A stretch of 20,000 nucleotides of DNA from Alloascoidea hylecoeti (lineage: Eukaryota), in contig BCKZ01000022.1 in assembly GCA_001600815.1 (NCBI GenBank), forward strand, positions 331,855-351,854, written 5' to 3'. Position numbers and translations under genes: made by a program. This document shows, piece by piece, positions 1 to 18,357 of this stretch. The stretch's first letter is position 1, and every line of letters starts with the position of its first letter. The notes under the pieces were generated by a model. It was given only the letters and a program-made list of their open reading frames with translations, was not told the origin of the DNA and searched no databases.

Positions 1-219
1 TATGCTGCTTTGGCCATATGGATCAAATGAAGCACCATTAGACGACTGATAAACGTTGAATCCTTGAAGTGCATAAGGGTTAAAATTTTGAGCTCCTTGA
101 AGTGCATAAGGATTAATTGGAGGTCTGTATGCAGTAGTACTCTTAGCACGTATTTTATCCGTTTCTTGTTGGATTTTTGGATCCACTCCAGAAGGTTTAG
201 ATGAGTTATTAGAAGACAT
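1..219 (-). CDS. 5' part of an unknown protein running off the window edge (73 codons visible)
   Basis: ATG at 219-217 in an AAAAATG context; frame open to position 1: MSSNNSSKPSGVDPKIQQETDKIRAKSTTAYRPPINPYALQGAQNFNPYALQGFNVYQSSNGASFDPYGQSSI. The internal repeat has an in-frame 33-nt period. Confidence 0.6.
   Translation of the reverse strand, partial: MSSNNSSKPSGVDPKIQQETDKIRAKSTTAYRPPINPYALQGAQNFNPYALQGFNVYQSSNGASFDPYGQSSI
61..111. repeat. Direct repeat TCCTTGAAGTGCATAAGG x2 (period 33) encoding the NPYALQG repeats
   Basis: Identical 18-mers at 61-78 and 94-111. Confidence 0.9.
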
Positions 220-2664
220 TTTTAGAAAATATTTCGTTGATTTGTTTTGAATATGAAGTAAGGAACTTCTGGATATTTGAGCAAAGGCGTGGATTTATGG
301 AGTATTTATGTTATTTGGGAATAATAATAAAAGAGGCAGTGGGTATCAAGTCGAAGTTACAATTAAAATCTATTCAATTTTGATTTTTTAGAAAGCTAAT
401 TATTGTTTCATTAATGTTATTTAGGTAGTAAATTAGTAATTCTGTAAAAAAAGAATCATATACCGGTATATGTTTACAGCAGGTCTTGTAATTTGATACC
501 CCGCAACATATTTTTATAAAAATAAATAGTCTCCCCCTTATTTAAGAAAGAGGACTGAATTTTTATTTTTTATATATTTTTGTTATAATTCATCATTTTC
601 ATTCAGTATTATTCTGATTAATTATAGATTTTTATTCATTCATTAGTAGTATTAGTCTTATTATCAGTATTATCCGTTCTCAGTTTAGTTTATTACTCTT
701 TATCTATTTATAATTTTATATATACACATTACTTTTTGTAAATTTTGTTCTATACGTATTTATTAGGAAATACTATAGTAATAAACGAGGCAGTGGAAAA
801 TGGCGTCATATTGATAATCAAAAAAACTCTGCTCTCATGAGAACCAATAATATTAATATTTATTTCACCACTTTTCAGATCTACTAGCTAGACGTCATAT
901 TTCTATAAAAAACATATTTTTATATTACACTAATTTTTCTCATATCATTATATTTACACACTTTTGATATATCTTTATTGTACACAATTTTTATTATATC
1001 TTGTTAACAACTTTGTATTAGCATAATTGTTATATATTTTTAAACATTTTTAATACACTTATTTGTATTGTTATACTTTTGTTGTTATTTATGAACTATA
1101 AGTATTAAAACTTGATGGTTCCGTAGAATTAAATTGAATTTTAGCCTTATAAGATCTAATTCTCACAATATCAAGTTGGAATTATAATTAAAGTGTACTC
1201 AATCTTGGCTTTTTGGATGTTGTAAATTAATATACTGGGTTGGATTTGAACTAAATATTTGGCCAATGTACATATGTGTCAGCATATTTCAAGCTCTAGC
1301 TATAGACACATTAACTTAAGTGTCATAGATTACCATGGGGACATATCATTTTTAATAGTCTTTGAAAAAGAAAAAAAGAGTAGTGTGGTATTTTTGAACT
1401 TGTCACGAATATAACGTGGGTAAATATAATTTTCGTCTCTAAATGATCGAATATTTAATGTAGAATGGCCCACTTATAAGTGTAAATATTAAGCTTGAAT
1501 TTTCTCATCTTCGCTTTTATACTAAGGACTCAAAAGAAAGCCATCAGCTAAATCAATTAACAGCACCGGAAATAATCCTATGATGGAATTGACTGAGAGT
1601 ATTAACTCTGTGAATATTGAAGAAGACTGTGCTTCACATTATGGTGCAACGGGAAGATTGAGTATTATTATAAAAGATCCTATATTGGCACAGGTTTATT
1701 TTTTAACAAATTCCGATATTTTCAATTTAAAACAACTGATACTAAAAAGAAAAACGAGCCAGACCTTATTTACGGACACACTATTGATTTTCAGTCGATT
1801 TTGCATCAAATATATGAAAGTATTCCTTCGTCATTTGCTTCCTATTACAGTGTACTCTTTTAATTGATGTTTTTGATAAAGTAATGTAAAGTAACGAAAA
1901 CTAAAAGTAAAATATTAAAAGATTAAATTGAAAAGATTAATAATGAGATTAGAGAGTTTAATACTGCCAAATATAGGAAGGTGATAATGCTTCTAGTCGG
2001 TAGAATAATGGTATTAAAGAGATTGAATACTGGATGACGTACCCTAAGCTAAACAGACGATCCCATTGTGAAAACTGTGCACGGAAAGTTGTTAACGCCC
2101 GAGCTGCAGCCGCCATTATTGGAATATGCATATGCATATCATATTTCCTTACTTCTCTGTAAAGTAGCAATGGTACAGTTGTGAGTAAGTCTCTCAGAAC
2201 AAGTAATCAGATGGTTTAAGTCGTATGAGTTTTCCTTTTAAACCCCTTTTATATATTCTTATCCTTTATCCCTTTAACGATTTCAACCATCGAACAACTA
2301 AATTATATTATTCTGAATATTATTATCGTTATACATTATTATTATTTGCTCATTCTATAATTATATACATTCAATACGCATTTTTTATTTTATATTAAAA
2401 ACACTTATTACAAGAAGATTAGCAGTTGTTAGACTTTTAGTCACAACAGTACTATGCATATAAATCTTTTTTCCTTCATAAAAATAATTTTTCTGAACAT
2501 GATCAGGAACATAGAATTACAACTTCTTCCATTACTAATTCTTATTGTGAACTTAAGTACTTTTAGTTTTGGGCTATCACACAGAAAGGTGGATCTGATT
2601 TTATTTCCTATAAATATCATCAACTTTAATTTCATTTCATGTTTGTATACATGGTATAAGGTTA

Positions 2665-2748
2665 TATTAAAAAATACGGCAGTTCATAGTTTTATTAAAA
2701 AATACGGCAGTTCATAGTTTTATTAAAAAATACGGCAGTTCATAGTTT
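2665..2748. repeat. Perfect tandem repeat, 3 x 28 bp TATTAAAAAATACGGCAGTTCATAGTTT
   Basis: Identical copies at 2665-2692, 2693-2720 and 2721-2748. Confidence 0.95.
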
Positions 2749-3390
2749 TTGTTTCTTATTTCTCTGATGAATTATCTCTAGTAATATTCTCACATTTGCC
2801 ACCTACAACTTTACTCGGTTGTAGAATAGTATATCTAATTCATGGAAACAAATAGTTGACAGCTATAGTGATGATATATGTAGATCAAAGTTTCAAGATC
2901 AAAAATATTAGAAATATTATAATGATAATTCAGAAACTGATTCATGGTATGAATTATATAAGGAACTTCGTCTTTAAATCAAATTGGAAAAAAATGATAA
3001 ATTTACAAAGAATAAATTAATTGGTCATACTAATAATACAGTTTGTATTAAATTTTTTAAAAATTAGATTTTGACTCGTTCAGCAGATTACACAATAAGA
3101 ATTTGGGACAGTGAAACATTTTTAAGAGTTATAAGTGAACCAAATATCGAGTTTTTATTACAGTTAGGAGTAGATATTGGTTTCTGGTTCATGGGATGGG
3201 ACTTGTATAATTCGGAGTTTACCAGATTTTGAGCTAATAGATCGTTTCATAATTCCAAAAGTTAGAGCTTCCTCTTCTGTCGATAGTCTCGCTTTATACA
3301 ATGGTTATACTGTATGTTGTAATCATTCTATTACGATTTAGAAACCAAGTCTTGATAATTTAAAACACAATTTTAAAGGAGATGGTTAAT
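2736..3390 (+). pseudogene. Decayed F-box/WD40-repeat protein gene
   Basis: F-box-like FVSYFSDELSLVIFSHLPPTTLLGCRIV, frameshift (~2832), then SNSWKQIVDSYSDDI. Linker SWYELYKE. WD40 repeats LIGHTNNTVCIKFFKN*ILTRSADYTIRIWD and, after another frameshift, ILVSGSWDGTCII. In-frame TAG at 2909-2911 and 3065-3067. Confidence 0.8.
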
Positions 3391-3576
3391 ATCCAAGTAA
3401 TCAGATAAACTGCTTTTAGTTTGCGGAGATGACGTTACACAAAATATGCCGGCAATGCTTATATAGAATAAACTTGACCCTCGTTGCCCACTGAATGGAA
3501 TCAATCTTCAGTAATAATATCTTTGGAGTAAATATCATACCGTAATGTGTAAATTAAATCACTAAGTATATACCTA

Positions 3577-3655
3577 TTACCCGGCTCTTACGTAGAAAAG
3601 TGAAATTTTTCTTGTTAGTGTTAAATTATACTCATCTCTGTACCGTGAAAATTTT
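3577..3655 (+). promoter_or_regulatory. Ribosome-biogenesis-type promoter of UTP21: Reb1-like site, RRPE and PAC-core motifs
   Basis: TTACCCGG 3577-3584; TGAAATTTTT 3601-3610; CTCATC (reverse GATGAG) 3631-3636; TGAAAATTTT 3646-3655, all just upstream of ATG 3688. Confidence 0.7.
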
Positions 3656-3687
3656 ACTGATTTTACCTAAATTCTTTTTTTCATATC

Positions 3688-6613
3688 ATGGTTTCTGAAA
3701 TAGTTAATCATACTGATGATGATCAAGTATCAAAAAAGAGAAAAGTTGAACAAGACATTGTGAAAAAGGAATCTCGTCCTTCAAGAATATTTGCTCCATT
3801 TAGGGTAAGTGAAAAATAATCATAGATTTAAAAATATTATATTGATATGATTTATTAAAACTAATAATGATTATTAGGTGATAGGAAATGTAACAAATGA
3901 AATACCATTTGCTGTAGCTTCTCTAGGTGATCAATTTTATATTACAACAAGTGTTGGTCGTTCTTTCCAAATATATGATGCTGCAACATTAAGATTATTA
4001 TTTGTTTCAAATACACAAACAAGTTCAAAAATAACTTGTTTACATGCTCATTTCCATTATGTATTTGCAGCATGGGATAATACCATTGGTATCTATAAAA
4101 GAGGTAAATTAGAACATACTTTAATATGTGGTGAAGATGAAGATGATGAAATTTCAATTAAAAATAATGGCCCAATTAAAAATTTATTATTACTTGGTGA
4201 ATATTTAATTGCAACAACTTTACATAAGATTTTTATTTTTAAAAAAAATCCATCAAAATCTGATTTAAAATATCCAACTGATTTATATACAATAATAAAT
4301 GTTTCTTCATTAAATGGTGATATTAAAGGAATTTCTCATCCACCAACATATTTAAATAAAATTGTTATAATGACAACTAATAATTTATTAATATTTAATA
4401 TACGAACCGGGAAATTATTATTTACATCTTCTGAAATTTCACCAAATTCTATTTTAACATGTATTGAATCTTCACCAATGCTTGATATAATTGCATTAGG
4501 TACATCAAAAGGTGAAATAATTTTTTACAATATTAAAAAAGGAAAAATCACAAGAAAAATAGATACAAGGGAAGCAGTTAGTTCAATTTCTTTTAGAACA
4601 GATGGTTCCAGTCATATTGCAGTTGGTTTAAATAATGGTGATTTATTATTTTATGATTTAGATCGTAAAAAAAGAGTTCATTTATTATCAAATGCTCATA
4701 AAGAACATTTTGGTGGAATTATAAAAGTACAATTTTTAAATGGTCAACCAATTATTGTTACAACAGGTGGTGATAATCATTTAAAAGAATATGTTTTTGA
4801 TCCTCCTTTATCAAATGGTGATATTTCAATTTCTTCTCCTCCAAGATTATTAAGATTTCGTGGTGGTCATTGTTCACCCCCATCAAGAATATTATTTTCA
4901 GATTTAGAATCACATTTTTTATTATCTTCTTCAAGAGATCAATCATTTTGGGGTTTTTCTTTAAGAAAAGATGCTCAAAGTCATGAATTTTCTCAAAAAT
5001 TACAAAAAACTGGTGGTCAACGTGTGGCAGGACTAACAAATAATTTAAAACAAAAATTTAATGAAATTATTGATATTGCTTATGAAGGTACTCGTGAAGG
5101 TGAATGGGAAAATATTATAACCGCTCATTTAGATGAAACTTTTGCAAGAACATGGGATAGACAAAAAGCAAGAGTTGGTAGATGGACTTTACCAACTGTT
5201 GATGGTAGTTTTGCTAAAGCCGTTGCCATATCTTCATGTGGTAACTTTGGTATAGTTGGTTCAGCTCAAGGTGGAATTGGTGTTTATAATTTACAAAGTG
5301 GTATCTTAAGGAAAAAATTTGTAAATGTTCATAAAAGCTCAATTACTGGTGTTGCAATTGATGGATTAAATCGAGTAATGATATCTACTTCTTTAGATGG
5401 AACAATTAATTTTTATGATTTTGGTCGAGGTGTTCATACTACAAGAATGCGTTTATTAGCTCCTATTAATTCAATGGTATATCATAGATCATCAGATTTA
5501 TTAGCAGTAGCTTTGGATAATTTATCCGTTACTGTTATTGACTTAACTACAAAGAAGAAGATTAGAGAATTATGGGGTCATTCAAATAGAATAACATCAC
5601 TTGATTTTACACCAAATGGTCGATGGATCATATCGGCATCTTTAGATTCCACAATTAGAACTTGGGATTTACCCACTGGTGGATGTATTGATGCTGTTAA
5701 AGTTGATAATGTTGTTACACAATTAAAAGTTAGTCCTACTGGTGATATGTTAGCAACTATCCATGTTAGCGGTGTTGGAATTGGTTTATGGACTAATAGA
5801 GCTCAATTTAAAAATATTTCTACAAGACAAGTTAATGAAGATGAAATAAATGAAATCACATTACCTAACGTTTCAGGTGAAGGATCCAAAGGAATACTAG
5901 ATGGTGTTTTTGATAATGATGAAGATGCAGAAAATTTTATTACAAGTAATCCTATAGATAATCAAATTGAACAACTTCATGATGATTTAATTACATTATC
6001 AGTTGGACCAAGAATAAAATTCAATACACTTGTTCATTTAGATGCAATTAGATTGAGATCGAAACCAAAAGAAGCACCAAAGAAACCTGAAAAGTTACCT
6101 TTTTTCTTACAATTTGGTGATAAAAATAAAATTGGAACTATAAATGGCGCTGATACTGGAAAGAAAGATGAACCATTTTCCATTACACAAGGTGTTAAAC
6201 CAACGAATAATGAATCTCTTAGATTTGAATCAGAATTTACTAAAAAATTGCGACTTGGAAATGATACTGGATCATTTAAACAATTTTTAGATTATTTGAA
6301 AGGATTATCTCCATCTTCAACAGATATGGAAATTAGAACCATTAATCCTTTAGAATCATTAGATGAATTAATTTGGTTTATTAAGGCAATGTCTAATGGA
6401 TTAAAATCAAATATAAATTTTGAATTAATTGAAGCTTGGATAAGAATACTTTTAAAATGTCATGGTGATGCTATATTAGAAAATTATAATAAAAATAAAG
6501 AATTGAAGGAAACAATAAGTGAATGGGAAACATTACAAGAAAATTCTATTAATAGATTGGATTATCTTGTAAAATATACTTCAACAGTTTCAAACTTTTT
6601 ATCATCATTTTAG
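3688..6613 (+). CDS. UTP21: U3 snoRNP/SSU processome WD40 protein Utp21 (WDR36); exons 3688-3804 and 3878-6613, 950 aa
   Basis: Exon 1 MVSEIV...SRIFAPFR joins in frame to VIGNVTNEIPF, the conserved Utp21 N-terminus. Multiple WD40 repeats and the Utp21 C-terminal motif KPKEAPKKPEKLPFFL. Confidence 0.95.
3805..3877 (+). other. Spliceosomal intron of UTP21 (73 nt)
   Basis: GTAAGT donor, AACTAAT branch point (~3859-3865), TAG acceptor; phase 0 restores the frame. Confidence 0.9.
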
Positions 6614-8080
6614 TCAAAATTTAAATACTGTATAACTAGGCTAGTATGATAGAGATATAACTATAGATTTTTAACGGGTACTGCTCTAATTTTTATGATA
6701 CATTTTCTTTCTTTTCTGGATAATGTATTGTTCAATTCATTAATGTACGGAATAAATGAAGAAACATGTAAAGTAAAAGAAAATATAGCTAGCTAACTTA
6801 TAATGATGTAACCTATAGCTGTAATCCATTAATTTAATTGCTCTTTTTATGATAATTCTTCTCATATTATATAATTTTTAAATTTTCGAAACATTTTTTT
6901 TAATTGAAAGTTAATTTTAGTGTAATATGCATACATATATCACTTATAAATGTTTTTTTTTGGTAAGCTTCGACCTAGTGCAGGGTATTCAAATCATCAG
7001 AACATCCAAATGGTAATTTTAGCAAATATTTTTTGCTTAGCACCGATAGTTGGTACCGAAAAACATGTACTTAATGTAATTATAAAATCAAAAAAAGATT
7101 ATAAATTTAGCATGGACGAATAGTTTCTCAAATGGGGGCGAATATAACGCAAACTACTATATATTTAATCAATAGTATGGAAACCAATAGTATAGTAACC
7201 TGTCTATAGAAATAAATCAAATAGAAAATTAGTTATTTTCTTTTTTTGCCAAATTGCCACTGACTCATTAATTGAAGATTATATTTGAAGTTCGATTAAA
7301 CGCTTATTGCAAATGCTTTTTCAAATTATGATGATCAATTAAATATATAAATCTCTATATATATTAAATAATTCAAAGCTAGTATCTAATTAATATATTA
7401 ATTCATCAGAATAAATGGTTATTTCATTGCTCTGTCCCAAGAATTCAATATACTGTATTTGGTAACGTTTTCAAAACTTTCCTGCATATGAACTCACACT
7501 TACAGCCGTATCAAGATTAACCGGACGCTTTTTTCTCCTGTTCTACTCTAAAAGCCCATCCGAAGAACGCTTATAAAAATCATGGATAAAAGACTTTGCT
7601 TTGAATTTAAAGGGCCTTTTCTGATTGTAAATAATCAAGGGAATAGAATTATGTGGTATATGCATACAAATATGTTATGCTTAAGCAGGAGAATCACCTA
7701 TACTGAAGGATGTAAGAACTTTTGGATTTTACCATCGTTGGTGTTTGTGGAGTAGTGAAGAAGACTATGAATCATACGTTCTAGAGAAGATACTTGTAAA
7801 GAATACGTCTATTTTTATAGGAGTAAATTAATTAATTATATCTATAGGTCAAAAATAATATACAAAAATGAAGAGAAATTGAATAATCAAGATTATAATT
7901 CATCTATATAATGAAACCTTCAAACTCCAACCTTTTTAGAAGTAAAATTTAAAAGGTTTATACTTAGTATTACCATTAAAAAATTGCATTCATATGGTGA
8001 TTTCATATTTAGAAAGATCATATATCTGAATTAGTAGAAAGATCAAATATATGTTATAGAAAGTGTCTGGTGGAGTATGA

Positions 8081-8306
8081 TTAAGCAATGACACAATTCT
8101 TTGGCATAATATTTCCGTCGTAATTAGAATGGTAATCTATAATTAGATATCTCATTAGTTATATAATCAAATATATTGAATATAGCTAGTGCTAGATTGT
8201 GTATTGAGAATAGTTTCAAAGAATATAATTATAACTTACTTTGCCACCAGAACATGTCTTTATCCTCTGGGGCTTCTTTTCTAGATGAATCATTTCTGTA
8301 GGCCAT
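8081..8306 (-). CDS. Putative a-factor-type (CAAX lipopeptide) mating pheromone precursor, 40 aa; exons 8306-8240 and 8136-8081
   Basis: ATG in a CAAAAATG context. Exon 1 ends at GTAAGT (8239); AACTAAT branch point (8160-8154); TATAG acceptor (8137). Spliced product MAYRNDSSRKEAPEDKDMFWWQNYHSNYDGNIMPKNCVIA* ends in the CVIA CAAX box and contains N|Y sites. Confidence 0.85.
8137..8239 (-). other. Spliceosomal intron of the putative pheromone gene (103 nt, phase 1)
   Basis: GTAAGT...AACTAAT...TAG, the same signals as the UTP21 intron. Confidence 0.85.
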
Positions 8307-8416
8307 TTTTGTAGTAGTGGTTGATATAATTAAATTGTTTTTAATTTTAATTTAATAAATAAAAGAAGGGAATTAGTCTCTTATTAATAATTAATCACAA
8401 CAGTGATAAAACTACA

Positions 8417-8542
8417 TTTATAACCATAATAGGATTACAATTAATCTTATAATTATTATAATTATTATAATTAATTCTATATATGTCTCGAAACAATTGA
8501 ATATAGAAGACACATAAACGGAATTGTAAAATTCTTGAAACA
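8417..8542 (-). promoter_or_regulatory. Putative mating-gene promoter: TATA, Mcm1 CArG box, HMG-type ACAAT motifs, Ste12 PRE
   Basis: TATAAA (minus) 8422-8417; CCATAATAGG = CC(A/T)6GG at 8424-8433; ACAAT 8437-8441; AACAAT 8492-8497; TGAAACA 8536-8542; near-PRE CGAAACA 8489-8495. Confidence 0.6.
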
Positions 8543-8834
8543 GAAATTTAGGTGATTTTTAAAACCTTAAGCTATAATTGTATTCAAATGAGCTTAGGGT
8601 TAAACTTATAAATCTGATATGCATACATCAATTTGTTGTTAGTTATACATATTTACTATGATGGATATTCTAAATTACATTCAAATAAAAGTTAAGAAGA
8701 TGTAGAAATAATAAAAAAAAAAAAGGGTTTTCACATACTTAAGAGTTAAACGCAGGTGGTGCTCAATCGCCGAAGTAGGTAATTATGGACTCTTTCATGC
8801 ATACTACTGCATATTTGAATAAACCATCTACTCA

Positions 8835-10272
8835 GCACTAACCAATAAAAATATACAATATTGTTGGTGTAAGATTCATATATCTTTCAAATGGGTTAAA
8901 TCAACATATAGACACATTACTATACCTCAAAAATTATCAAGCTTAATGTTCAGACAGTAATTCAACTCACAATCTTCCAATTTTGCTGTTACAACACGTA
9001 TATATAATAATAATTGCAAATATGTAATTATATACTTGAATTGGTTCAAACTGAGATGGGGTTTGCATTTGTTAAAACAATGTCCTTCATCTCCATTGGT
9101 ACCACACAAGTCAAATGATTTCATACGTATTTGAAAACATTCCTTTGGAAGAAGCACCGTTAACACTATTCCCTACTTTAAAAGAAACAATATATAATCA
9201 ACTTAATTTCGGCGGCTATTTAAACTAAATATTCGGCCGTATACTATTCTATTTTGAGTGGCTTAATCAATTTCAATCTAAATTGGGTCGATTATCTAAT
9301 GCGATACTGTTCTGTCACCATTGAGAGGCACTATCACACTGTTGACTTGGATTCTATAAGCCGAGTATTTAGGTTATGGGGAATATTATCACACGGTGCA
9401 TCACGTGTGATAATATTTAGCCTAACGTCCTCGTGGCTGGAATTAAGTGGAATGAGTGGATACTAGTGTACGATCACGAAGTTAAGCTTAGTGGAATTAT
9501 CCTGAGCCTTTTTCTATATTACAATTTCCCCCACCCTTATAAATACGTACAAGTATACCCCTATTTTCAATATAATAAGAAGATGCTATGCACTTACGGG
9601 TATTATTAATATAGTTGTATCTTTATTAGCTACGGAAAATGGTAGCTTTTAATTGTAACAATATGGAATGAGTTATTCATTTGTTCATTGGATTTTATAA
9701 CTATAAAATAACAAGTACATACTATGAACATCTGAAATATATGGACCTAACTAATAGTTTAATCTTACCCTTAAAGGTTAAGATCACAATATTAGTTGAG
9801 ATAAGAGTCAGACGCGAAATTAAGCTTTTTGCAAATAAATCAGATAACAGATTGCAAACAATCTAGCTGTAATTCAATCAAGATAAGTAATTTTACATTT
9901 AACATTGTATAAGCTTACATAATATATGGTATATCTAACTAGACATGATGCTACCTATAGGTGATCACTACTATGATCATATAATTAATAGTGGGGTATA
10001 TCATTTAATTCATTCGTGATATCTCAATTACATCAATTGTATAATATACAATGTAGGTATAAATTTAAAGGATAACATTCTCCTAAAGCTTAAGTAAGAA
10101 TATTGAGTAATGAAATCACTTAACCATGACTTAATGGCTCTCCATTGATGCTTACAACATTATCAAAAAGATTATATCTAATAGGTATAGCCATTATATT
10201 GACTTGATGTTGTTATATGGTACTTATGTTAGCGATCGTAAAGATTAGCATTAGCATATCATACTAATGCTA
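8835..10272 (+). ncRNA. Candidate long structured non-coding RNA (telomerase RNA hypothesis); boundaries approximate
   Basis: No credible CDS. Many stems with plus-strand G-U pairs, including a ~140-nt rod (9328-9469) with a perfect 14-bp core AATATTATCACACG/CGTGTGATAATATT. Confidence 0.4.
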
Positions 10273-10623
10273 GTTGTGGGCATGATGATGATAAAAAACT
10301 TATCTATAGTTTTTGTGAATCAAAACAGGTAAAAAAAGCGTACAAGCAAAAACATCCATACAAGCAATAGTAATAATAATAGCATAACATAACATAACAA
10401 ATAAATACACATGTACAGCTCCGCCCAAAATATATCCAAACAAAATAAAACATCAAATAATAATAAATTGTCAAATATACGTATAAAAAAAAAAAAAAAA
10501 AAAAAAAATTCCAACATNAAANNCAAGTATTATATATGATGTCATTCGCTGGTTGATTATAATAGAAAATATTAAGTGAATAAAAAAGAACAATTATAAT
10601 AAAAGTCATTCAATGAGGGTTAA

Positions 10624-15988: not shown

Positions 15989-18357
15989 ATGAGTTTAATA
16001 GATGAAGATGATGGATTTAAATTTATATATCCCGAAGATAAAAATGAAAATAAAAATGTGTCAAAAAGTCCAAGAAAATCAAGAAGAACAATAATTAATC
16101 CAATTAAAATTATAAGAAAAGATGATAATCAAATGTTTAAACCTGGTGATATTGTAACTGTTACTTCAAGTGATGGAGAAGAATCTTATTTAGCAATGAT
16201 TAAAAATTTTGAATATAATTCAAGAGGTGTTATGATGGCAATGATGATTTGGTTCGTTACTGAAAGTGATAAAGAAGTTGAATTAAAAGATGATTGGTTT
16301 AAGGTATTTTAAAACATAATAATATTTAAAGATGATAAATTACTAATTAACTAATGTTTTATTTATTGTAGAATGAAGTTTATATTACTGGTGATGCAGA
16401 TAGAAATCCACTTGATGTAATTGAAGATTTAGTTAAAATTATATCAATTAAACAATTTAAAATTGATTATGATCATCATTTAAATGATGAAGAATTAGAA
16501 TCAATTTTTATTTGTAGATATGCTGTTAATAGAGAATCAAAAATTTATTCAAAAAAATTTGATTGGAATGAAATTTTTAAATTAAATGATGAAAATAAAA
16601 ATGAAATATATGAAAATGAAATTGAGAATTTTATGAAATATATTCAAAATATAACAATTGATATTAATAAGTCACCAAGAAGAGGTAAGAAAATAATAAA
16701 AACTCCAATGAAATCAAATAATCATAATACACCATTTAAATCACAAGATAGAAGGAAATCAAAACCAACTCCAAAGTTAAAACTTCAAGATGAAGTAAAT
16801 GATCCAGATATTGAATTTTCAGATGATTCTTCTGATGAATATCAAAATAATAATGATGATGATTCAGAAGATGAAACAGATGATTCAGAAATTTATGATA
16901 GTGATTATTATAAAGAACAAAAGAAAAAAATTCAACAAACTCCAAAACATAAAAGACATCTGAGTAATCCAAATACACCATCTCCTAAAAAACAAAAATT
17001 AGAAAAAATTATGTTAACACCACATAGATCAATTTATGCAAGATCACAATTATCAACACCAAATTTACCAAATAGATTAACATCACCGATTAAGAATTTA
17101 ATATCACCATCAAAATCACCATTTGTATCAACAAGATATAAACTACAAATTGGTAAAACAATAAATTCATTACCATGTCGTGAAGAACAATTTTCAACAT
17201 TATATTATAGATTAGAATCATCAATAAATTCATTAACTGGTTCATGTATTTATATAAGTGGTACACCAGGTACTGGTAAAACAGCAACAGTTAGAGAAGT
17301 TATAAATCAATTATTAATTAAAATGAATCAAAATGAAATAAATCAATTTAATTATATTGAAATTAATGGATTAAAATTAACTTCACCTTATGATGCTTAT
17401 GAAATGTTATGGTATAAGTTACATAATCAAAGAGTTAGTTCAGCAAATGCAATATTATTATTAGAAAAGCAATTTAAATTTGGAAGTTCATCAAATTCAA
17501 AGATGAAGAATGATTTACCATTAGTTGTTTTAATGGATGAATTAGATCAAGTTATAACGAAAAATCAATCAATTATGTATAATTTTTTTAATTGGCCAAC
17601 TTATAAAAATTCAAAATTAATTATTATTGCAGTTGCAAATACAATGGATTTACCAGAAAGAATATTAACAAATAAAATATCAAGTAGAATTGGATTAACA
17701 AGAATTCAATTTCCTGGTTATAATTATAAACAATTAGAAACAATAATAAAAACAAGATTAAAAAGTTTTGAAAATGATGGGTTGGAAATTGGTGATGATT
17801 CAATTGGTTTTGCAAGTAGGAAAGTTGCAAGTGTTAGTGGTGATGCAAGAAGAGCGTTAACATTTTGTCGTAGAGCAATTGAAATTGCAGAATTAGAATA
17901 TAATAATTCAAAATCAACTAATAAAAATAAAAAAGTTAAAGTTATTGTTAAACATATTCAAAAAGCAATTAATGAATCAACAAATTCACCAATTTCAATA
18001 TATTTAAAACATTTACCATTATCATATAAAATTTTTTTATCGGCAATTTTAGGAAGATATAGAAAAACTGGAATAATTGAATGTTCAATTGGTGATGTTA
18101 TTGATGAAATGTATCAATTAATAAATATTAATTTATTATCAAGTTCAAAATTTAAAATTAAAAAATTTTTATATGAATCAAATAAAAAAATTAGAATTAA
18201 TGGATTTTTTAAAATTATTTCTGAATTAATTGATTGTGGAATAATTATTGTTCAAAATAATAATATTGAAAGAAGTAGTTTTTTAAAATTAATTATTCGT
18301 GATGAAGAAATTAAAAGTGCTTTTAAAGGTGATCCTGATTTAGCAGGTATGGTATAG
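15989..18357 (+). CDS. ORC1: Origin recognition complex subunit 1; exons 15989-16303 and 16372-18357, 766 aa
   Basis: BAH domain split by an intron (...DDWFK|NEVYITG...FICRYA). AAA+ domain: SLPCREEQF, Walker A YISGTPGTGKT, Walker B VLMDELD, ANTMDLPER, VSGDARRAL. Confidence 0.95.
16304..16371 (+). other. Spliceosomal intron of ORC1 (68 nt)
   Basis: GTATTT donor, TACTAAT/AACTAAT branch candidates, TAG acceptor; joins two ORF-track ORFs in frame. Confidence 0.85.

Follow-up and report, generated by a model that had tools for sequence, protein, structure and literature searches.

A predicted two-exon gene for a lipopeptide pheromone precursor of the a-factor/M-factor type ending in CVIA

Detailed sequence analysis of a 20,000-nt stretch of yeast DNA (hereafter the window) revealed, on its minus strand, what is likely a real budding-yeast gene of two spliced exons that encodes the precursor of a lipopeptide pheromone of the a-factor/M-factor type. 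The gene is probably unannotated, and its splicing, expression, processing, mature end and function are inferred. The anatomy of the locus (a short ATG exon, an intron with a complete set of splice signals and a second exon ending in a CaaX box and a stop codon) can be read directly, and its appearance by chance is improbable.

Structure of the candidate gene

Exon 1 begins with an ATG at 8306, preceded by A-rich sequence, and its last base is the A at 8240, after which the sequence continues with GTAAGT (Table 1). The in-frame joining of the two exons (67 + 56 nt) yields 123 nt, corresponding to 40 codons plus a stop, with CVIA-stop at the end. The predicted intron divides the codon of the first Asn-Tyr pair (A/AT) at the junction 8240/8136, and in its unspliced form the exon 1 frame runs into a stop three codons inside the intron. 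An exon-intron-exon gene of this kind had been proposed in an earlier note on the same DNA; its coordinates, GTAAGT donor, branch-point motif, TAG acceptor and in-frame join were all re-derived here, and the joined translation was found to be identical, letter for letter, to the 40-residue product given there.

A single AG lies between the branch A and the proposed 3' site, 4 nt past the branch A, and in yeast splicing an AG at this distance is too near to be used. An alternative intron of 214 nt, ending at 8026, was considered and rejected as implausible because its branch point is only 5 nt from the AG. The intron also contains an ATG (8155), on which the earlier note was silent, opening a 24-codon ORF that shares the CVIA C-terminus with the spliced product; this ATG overlaps the branch-point motif and has a C at position -3. 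With a retained intron, the frame of exon 1 would close at 8241-8228 (minus strand) with Gln-Ser-Lys-Leu-stop, giving a peptide of 25 residues with a peroxisomal-targeting-like SKL tail; this tail probably just reflects the consensus of the donor site.

Table 1. Positions of the candidate gene, its predicted signals and the homology-supported introns in the window
Feature	Position	Strand	Description
Exon 1	8240..8306	-	67 nt; ATG, 22 codons and first base of the split Asn codon
Predicted spliceosomal intron	8137..8239	-	103 nt; GTAAGT ... TAACTAAT ... TAG; predicted from sequence signals
Branch-point motif	8154..8161	-	TAACTAAT; 18 nt from branch A to intron 3' end
Exon 2	8081..8136	-	56 nt; remainder of the Asn codon, predicted mature region, Cys-Val-Ile-Ala, TAA
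Alternative unspliced ORF	8081..8155	-	24 codons from the intronic ATG (8155); rival precursor
TATA-like element	8416..8422	-	TATAAAT, at -116
Mcm1/SRF-type box	8424..8433	.	CC(A/T)6GG, 118-127 bp upstream of the ATG
Second response-like element	8489..8495	+	CGAAACA, 6-of-7 match, about -189
Ste12-type pheromone response element	8536..8542	+	TGAAACA, perfect match, 230-236 bp upstream, reverse to the gene
UTP21 intron	3805-3877	+	73 nt; GTAAGT, AACTAAT, 13 nt from branch A to 3' end, TAG
ORC1 intron	16304-16371	+	68 nt; GTATTT, TAACTAAT, 17 nt, TAG
TEM1 intron	18700-18633	-	68 nt; GTATGC, TTACTAAC, 19 nt, TAG

Downstream of the stop codon, a 23-nt element is present in tandem (8005-8027 and 8030-8052), and it recurs with 78% identity at the branch-point region of the intron (8154-8176); on the gene strand, all copies close with a motif resembling ACTAAT. 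The idea that exon 2 has a decayed duplicate downstream of the gene was considered and rejected, the shared part being this AT-rich element only.

Genomic context and local intron pattern

The window is AT-rich (GC 22-36%) and contains recognizable genes for UTP21, a REI1-type zinc-finger protein, TSR1, a SUR7-family protein, ORC1 and a TEM1-like GTPase. Three of them, UTP21, ORC1 and TEM1, harbor introns whose removal restores both frame and domain continuity, so that these introns are supported by homology (Table 1); the ORC1 donor, GTATTT, is unusual. The candidate intron fits the grammar common to them (GTA-type donor, ACTAAY, 13-19 nt to TAG), with GTAAGT, TAACTAAT, 18 nt and TAG and a GC content of 0.21, although at 103 nt it is longer than the verified introns (68-73 nt). 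Since at least three of the six recognizable genes carry an intron, a proportion high for budding yeast, an intron in the candidate is not unexpected.

Among the best 120 of 378 TSR1 matches, only budding-yeast proteins were found, none of them exceeding 51% identity, and values near 47-49% were shared by Wickerhamomyces, Pachysolen, Cyberlindnera, Scheffersomyces, Komagataella and Saccharomyces. In a quick tree of 26 hand-chosen rows from these best 120 matches together with the window protein, the latter fell outside the three large clades, next to Nadsonia and with a long branch (0.86). Because the tree was rooted at the midpoint and followed a quick search, and because the composition of the window protein was flagged as deviant, nothing more is drawn from it than that the matches include no close sequenced relative. 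The window belongs to an AT-rich, intron-rich budding yeast without a close relative among the TSR1 matches.

The tRNA scan of the window returned no genes, and the Rfam search gave no match at the gathering score over the window and none at E up to 1 over positions 6613-10300. Likewise, no frame in 1-3660 or 6613-10300 was recognizable by Pfam, which was applied to 52 stop-to-stop frames out of the 81 that reach 50 codons or more, the 29 omitted frames overlapping long genes in other frames. These two gene-poor stretches, of about 3.7 kb each, are long for yeast intergenic DNA. Several further features of the window were recorded. Positions 9373-9426 form an inverted repeat with 23-nt arms, 83% complementary and 8 nt apart, with a central CACGTG (E-box/Cbf1-type), the flanks of which are, as we assume, not AT-rich enough for a point centromere. 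Two further CC(A/T)6GG boxes (1679-1688 and 2113-2122), 430 bp apart, lie in the gene-poor stretch 1-3660, near the unassigned ORFs 1580-1867 and 2454-2717. The left edge of the window (1-219, minus strand) is crossed by a Gln/Asn/Pro/Tyr-rich ORF with its ATG at 219, of which the N-terminal 73 residues, carrying repeated Pro-Tyr-Ala-Leu-Gln-Gly motifs, are included. Finally, three N (10518, 10522 and 10523) in the 3' region of the REI1-type gene mark an assembly ambiguity.

Upstream region

The sequence upstream of exon 1 carries a TATA-like element, a box of the Mcm1/SRF type and, further away, one perfect and one imperfect element of the Ste12 type (Table 1), and no ATG intervenes between TATAAAT and the start codon of exon 1. 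An ATTGT core, which may be a Mata2 half-site, lies 4 bp from the CC(A/T)6GG box. In the window as a whole, CC(A/T)6GG occurs four times versus 1.56 expected (11 of 200 shuffles reach four, a mild enrichment), and TGAAACA is at the level of chance (8 versus 7.03 expected); the region upstream of the candidate is the only spot in the window where CC(W)6GG and TGAAACA are less than 300 bp apart. According to the available parts of two preprints, in a-specific genes of budding yeasts, sites for Mata2 or Matalpha2 flank those for Mcm1 (bioRxiv 10.1101/565234), and TGAAACA is the Ste12 motif (bioRxiv 10.1101/2021.09.28.462209). Cell-type-specific transcription was examined here at the level of motifs (CC(W)6GG, TGAAACA and TATA upstream), which are weak predictors; as such promoter motifs discriminate poorly between pheromone candidates (bioRxiv 10.1101/2021.09.28.462209, available part), they are counted as modest support only.

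Positions 8440-8479, which separate the upstream elements from the Mcm1-type box, consist of an AT-only tandem repeat with three copies of a unit of about 9 nt. Just upstream of the promoter, the strand of the candidate carries another strong intron-like signal, of 125 nt, at 8738-8614 (GTATGT, AACTAAC, 25 nt, CAG); it is preceded by a GC-richer patch at about 8760-8830, and no obvious ORF was seen there. This signal may be due to chance, or may be part of a non-coding or tiny gene.

Similarity to lipopeptide pheromone precursors

Every sequence-level feature of a-factor and M-factor precursors that was examined is present at the locus. The CaaX box, CVIA, stands directly before TAA, and M-factor, as we take it, likewise ends in CVIA. 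The length falls within the range of roughly 30-45 residues when the transcript is spliced (40 residues), and is 24 residues if it is unspliced. By composition, the N-terminal extension is hydrophilic, 9 of the 22 residues encoded in exon 1 being charged (GRAVY -1.70). Two Asn-Tyr pairs serve as internal marks of possible cleavage, at distances of 10 and 14 residues counted up to the Cys and with the Cys included. The predicted mature part is rather polar, whereas that of S. cerevisiae a-factor is less so. Only one copy is visible in the 20,000-nt window.

These features correspond to the description of the class in the portions of the literature available to us. CVIA is the CaaX box of a-factor; it is fully farnesylated, Rce1 and Ste24 can both cleave it, and methylation follows (PMC5014548). 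The a-factor precursors, of 36 and 38 codons, are composed of an N-terminal extension, the mature part and CAAX, those of M-factor of extensions of 30 or 32 residues, a nonamer and CAAX, and a hydrophilic extension without signal sequence is a criterion of the class (PMC2134810). An internal Asn a short distance before the Cys marks the final N-terminal cleavage (bioRxiv 10.1101/2021.09.28.462209). The a-factor-type reading of the earlier note is partly supported here, by length, CVIA, charged extension, internal Asn, intron grammar and promoter motifs, while the mature forms that it named are retained as predictions.

A scan of a metagenome collection that excludes the contig of the window, with a degenerate pattern (seven residues through Cys, three free codons and a stop), returned five loci, all of them unrelated, with GC of 0.38-0.47, non-CaaX-like tails and no upstream similarity, three of the five being the same sequence. 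A comparison of three metatranscriptome runs from one study with positions 1-10500 of the window yielded three contigs sharing chance pieces of 18-28 nt, with no joints and none of them over the locus, which are no evidence either way. Among the papers searched, none relevant was found for the peptide motif strings.

Alternative explanations

It is unlikely that the locus is a chance arrangement without a gene, in which an AT-rich intergenic CaaX-stop, intron-like signals and an upstream ATG frame happen to coincide. Single signals are indeed frequent. With a template derived from the three homology-supported introns and a null model of third order (Markov) of the non-coding DNA of the window, seven distinct intron-like signals were counted in the window versus 5.1 expected per 40 kb of strand; beyond the candidate and the supported introns, three of these are unverified, one of which lies inside the REI1 coding sequence. 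Short ORFs ending in any CxxX are also common, at 3.3 per 40 kb of strand in simulation, and 100-700 N...CAAX loci per yeast genome are given in the available part of bioRxiv 10.1101/2021.09.28.462209. The combination, by contrast, is rare: 66.6 Mb of simulated non-coding-like sequence contained 5,488 CxxX loci, 218 of them with a strict CaaX; a compatible ATG exon and intron accompanied 54 of the 5,488, and in just two of these the CaaX was also strict. The resulting rate of two-exon strict CaaX models is about 0.0012 per 40 kb, or about 0.0004 for the approximately 14.6 kb of non-coding strand in the window, a figure from an order-3 Markov null, trained on 7.3 kb, that may understate chance in real genomes. 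The locus stands alone in the window: on either strand, no other short ORF has a strict CaaX end and there is no other two-exon CaaX model. Base composition points the same way, exon 1 (GC 0.42) and exon 2 (0.30) being richer in GC than the intron (0.21) and the flanking DNA (0.21 and 0.27), as does the ordered set of promoter motifs. Among 10,282 simulated open ATG ORFs of 22 codons, the values of exon 1 were reached in 0.64% for charge, 0.11% for GRAVY and 2.2% for GC, and jointly in none, nor were they jointly reached in any of the 54 such ORFs of the real non-coding DNA of the window, the tested features having been picked after the locus was seen. The conjunction of features is not chance, although the single signals are at chance level, and, independently of the conjunction test, exon 1 resembles the kind of coding sequence that such a gene should have.

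A real pheromone gene without splicing, in which the 24-codon ORF from the ATG at 8155 is the precursor and the presumed exon 1 is non-coding, is very improbable. Such an ORF is present, contains an internal Asn and has the same CVIA end, and it is the form that a published single-exon pipeline would report (bioRxiv 10.1101/2021.09.28.462209, available part). Its ATG, however, overlaps the branch-point motif and has a C at -3, its 10-residue lead is hydrophobic, unlike known extensions, and the TATA-like element and Mcm1-type box are positioned upstream of exon 1. Furthermore, since a compatible two-exon extension accompanied just 54 of the 5,488 simulated CxxX loci, the in-frame ATG exon would then be a coincidence of about 1%, its composition not counted. 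Alternatively, the gene may be real and spliced and encode a small prenylated peptide other than a mating pheromone, such as a membrane-tethered micropeptide. CaaX boxes are found on many proteins, at least in the parts of the literature at hand, and the pheromone function proposed here is read from the sequence. The length, Asn sites, CVIA and promoter motifs nevertheless fit the pheromone class, which makes a micropeptide of this kind quite unlikely. To our knowledge, no other yeast class of CaaX peptides of about 40 residues with a charged, removable extension exists.

Prior expectation was also taken into account. In a curated set, an average of 3.2 pheromone loci was obtained per genome of 8-27 Mb (bioRxiv 10.1101/2021.09.28.462209, available part). 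We estimate from this a prior of about 0.005 pheromone loci per 20-kb window, of which perhaps one third would be intron-bearing in this organism. Set against the simulated chance rate, in which exon composition and promoter are not yet counted, this prior on paper strongly favors a real gene; because the features were chosen post hoc, the null was simple and the evidence is that of the sequence, the weighing was cut back, and a spliced a-factor/M-factor-type precursor gene is put forward as likely.

Proposed maturation and significance

By analogy with S. cerevisiae a-factor, the spliced precursor gene would be transcribed from a TATA promoter with an Mcm1-type box and Ste12-type elements, and removal of the 103-nt intron would complete the Asn codon. 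The spliced mRNA would be translated into a cytosolic precursor of 40 residues without signal peptide. Its Cys within CVIA would be farnesylated, proteases of the Rce1/Ste24 type would cut off VIA, and an enzyme of the Ste14 type would methylate the C-terminus thus exposed. Cleavage of the charged extension after one of the two Asn would then release a farnesylated methyl ester of 10 or 14 residues, for which an ABC transporter of the Ste6 type may be the exporter and a Ste3-type protein the receptor.

The codon divided by the intron is that of the Asn at which the first cleavage is predicted, and the unspliced RNA offers ORFs of 25 and 24 codons. There is a slim chance that splicing is built into pheromone maturation in a deep or fast-evolving, intron-rich lineage of budding yeasts that lacks a sequenced close relative, where regulated splicing would gate or diversify the pheromone.

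Homology searches do not reach the genes for lipopeptide pheromones, whose sequences are too short and diverge too quickly. The pipeline applied to 332 budding yeasts cannot see intron-bearing copies, and introns are named as one reason why some species lack candidates (bioRxiv 10.1101/2021.09.28.462209, available part). The candidate is a concrete example of this blind spot of ORF-based searches, from a lineage without close sequenced relative. If real, it would provide a ligand for studying the co-evolution of Ste3-type receptors and Ste6-type exporters in that lineage. Intron-bearing lipopeptide pheromone genes are already known from S. pombe and from YlMFA4, as far as the available sources extend, and the view of pheromone action is unchanged.

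Relation to described pheromone genes

The MFA1 and MFA2 genes of S. cerevisiae have no intron, whereas the candidate has a predicted one; they also encode one Asn-Tyr pair versus two in the candidate. They share with the candidate short precursors (36 and 38 codons versus 40), a three-part layout, the same CaaX box CVIA, an Asn before the mature part and no signal peptide (PMC2134810, PMC5014548 and bioRxiv 10.1101/2021.09.28.462209, available parts). Wickerhamomyces anomalus possesses at least seven MFA paralogues, with Mata2-Mcm1-type elements in its a-specific promoters, according to the available part of bioRxiv 10.1101/565234. The candidate resembles these in its Mcm1-type box, a comparison that concerns the CC(W)6GG core only, while the Wickerhamomyces TSR1 is just about 49% identical to that of the window.

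The mfm1-3 genes of S. pombe are lipopeptide pheromone genes that contain introns (bioRxiv 10.1101/2021.09.28.462209, available part), a precedent that the earlier note had drawn on. These redundant copies encode precursors of 42-44 residues, which mature into a farnesylated, methylated nonapeptide in the description accessible to us. S. pombe differs in belonging to another subphylum, the genes of the window being closest to those of budding yeasts (TSR1, best 120 of 378 matches).

A parallel in gene layout among the budding yeasts is YlMFA4 of Yarrowia lipolytica, a gene of the a-factor type with a canonical intron within its ORF, which for that reason is invisible to the ORF-based pipeline (bioRxiv 10.1101/2021.09.28.462209, available part). 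Paralogues lacking introns led to YlMFA4, and a quadruple deletion validated it, whereas the candidate is known from its sequence alone. As described in the same source, YlMFA4 was recognized by its 5' splice site, branch point and 3' splice site, the same three signals by which the candidate was recognized.
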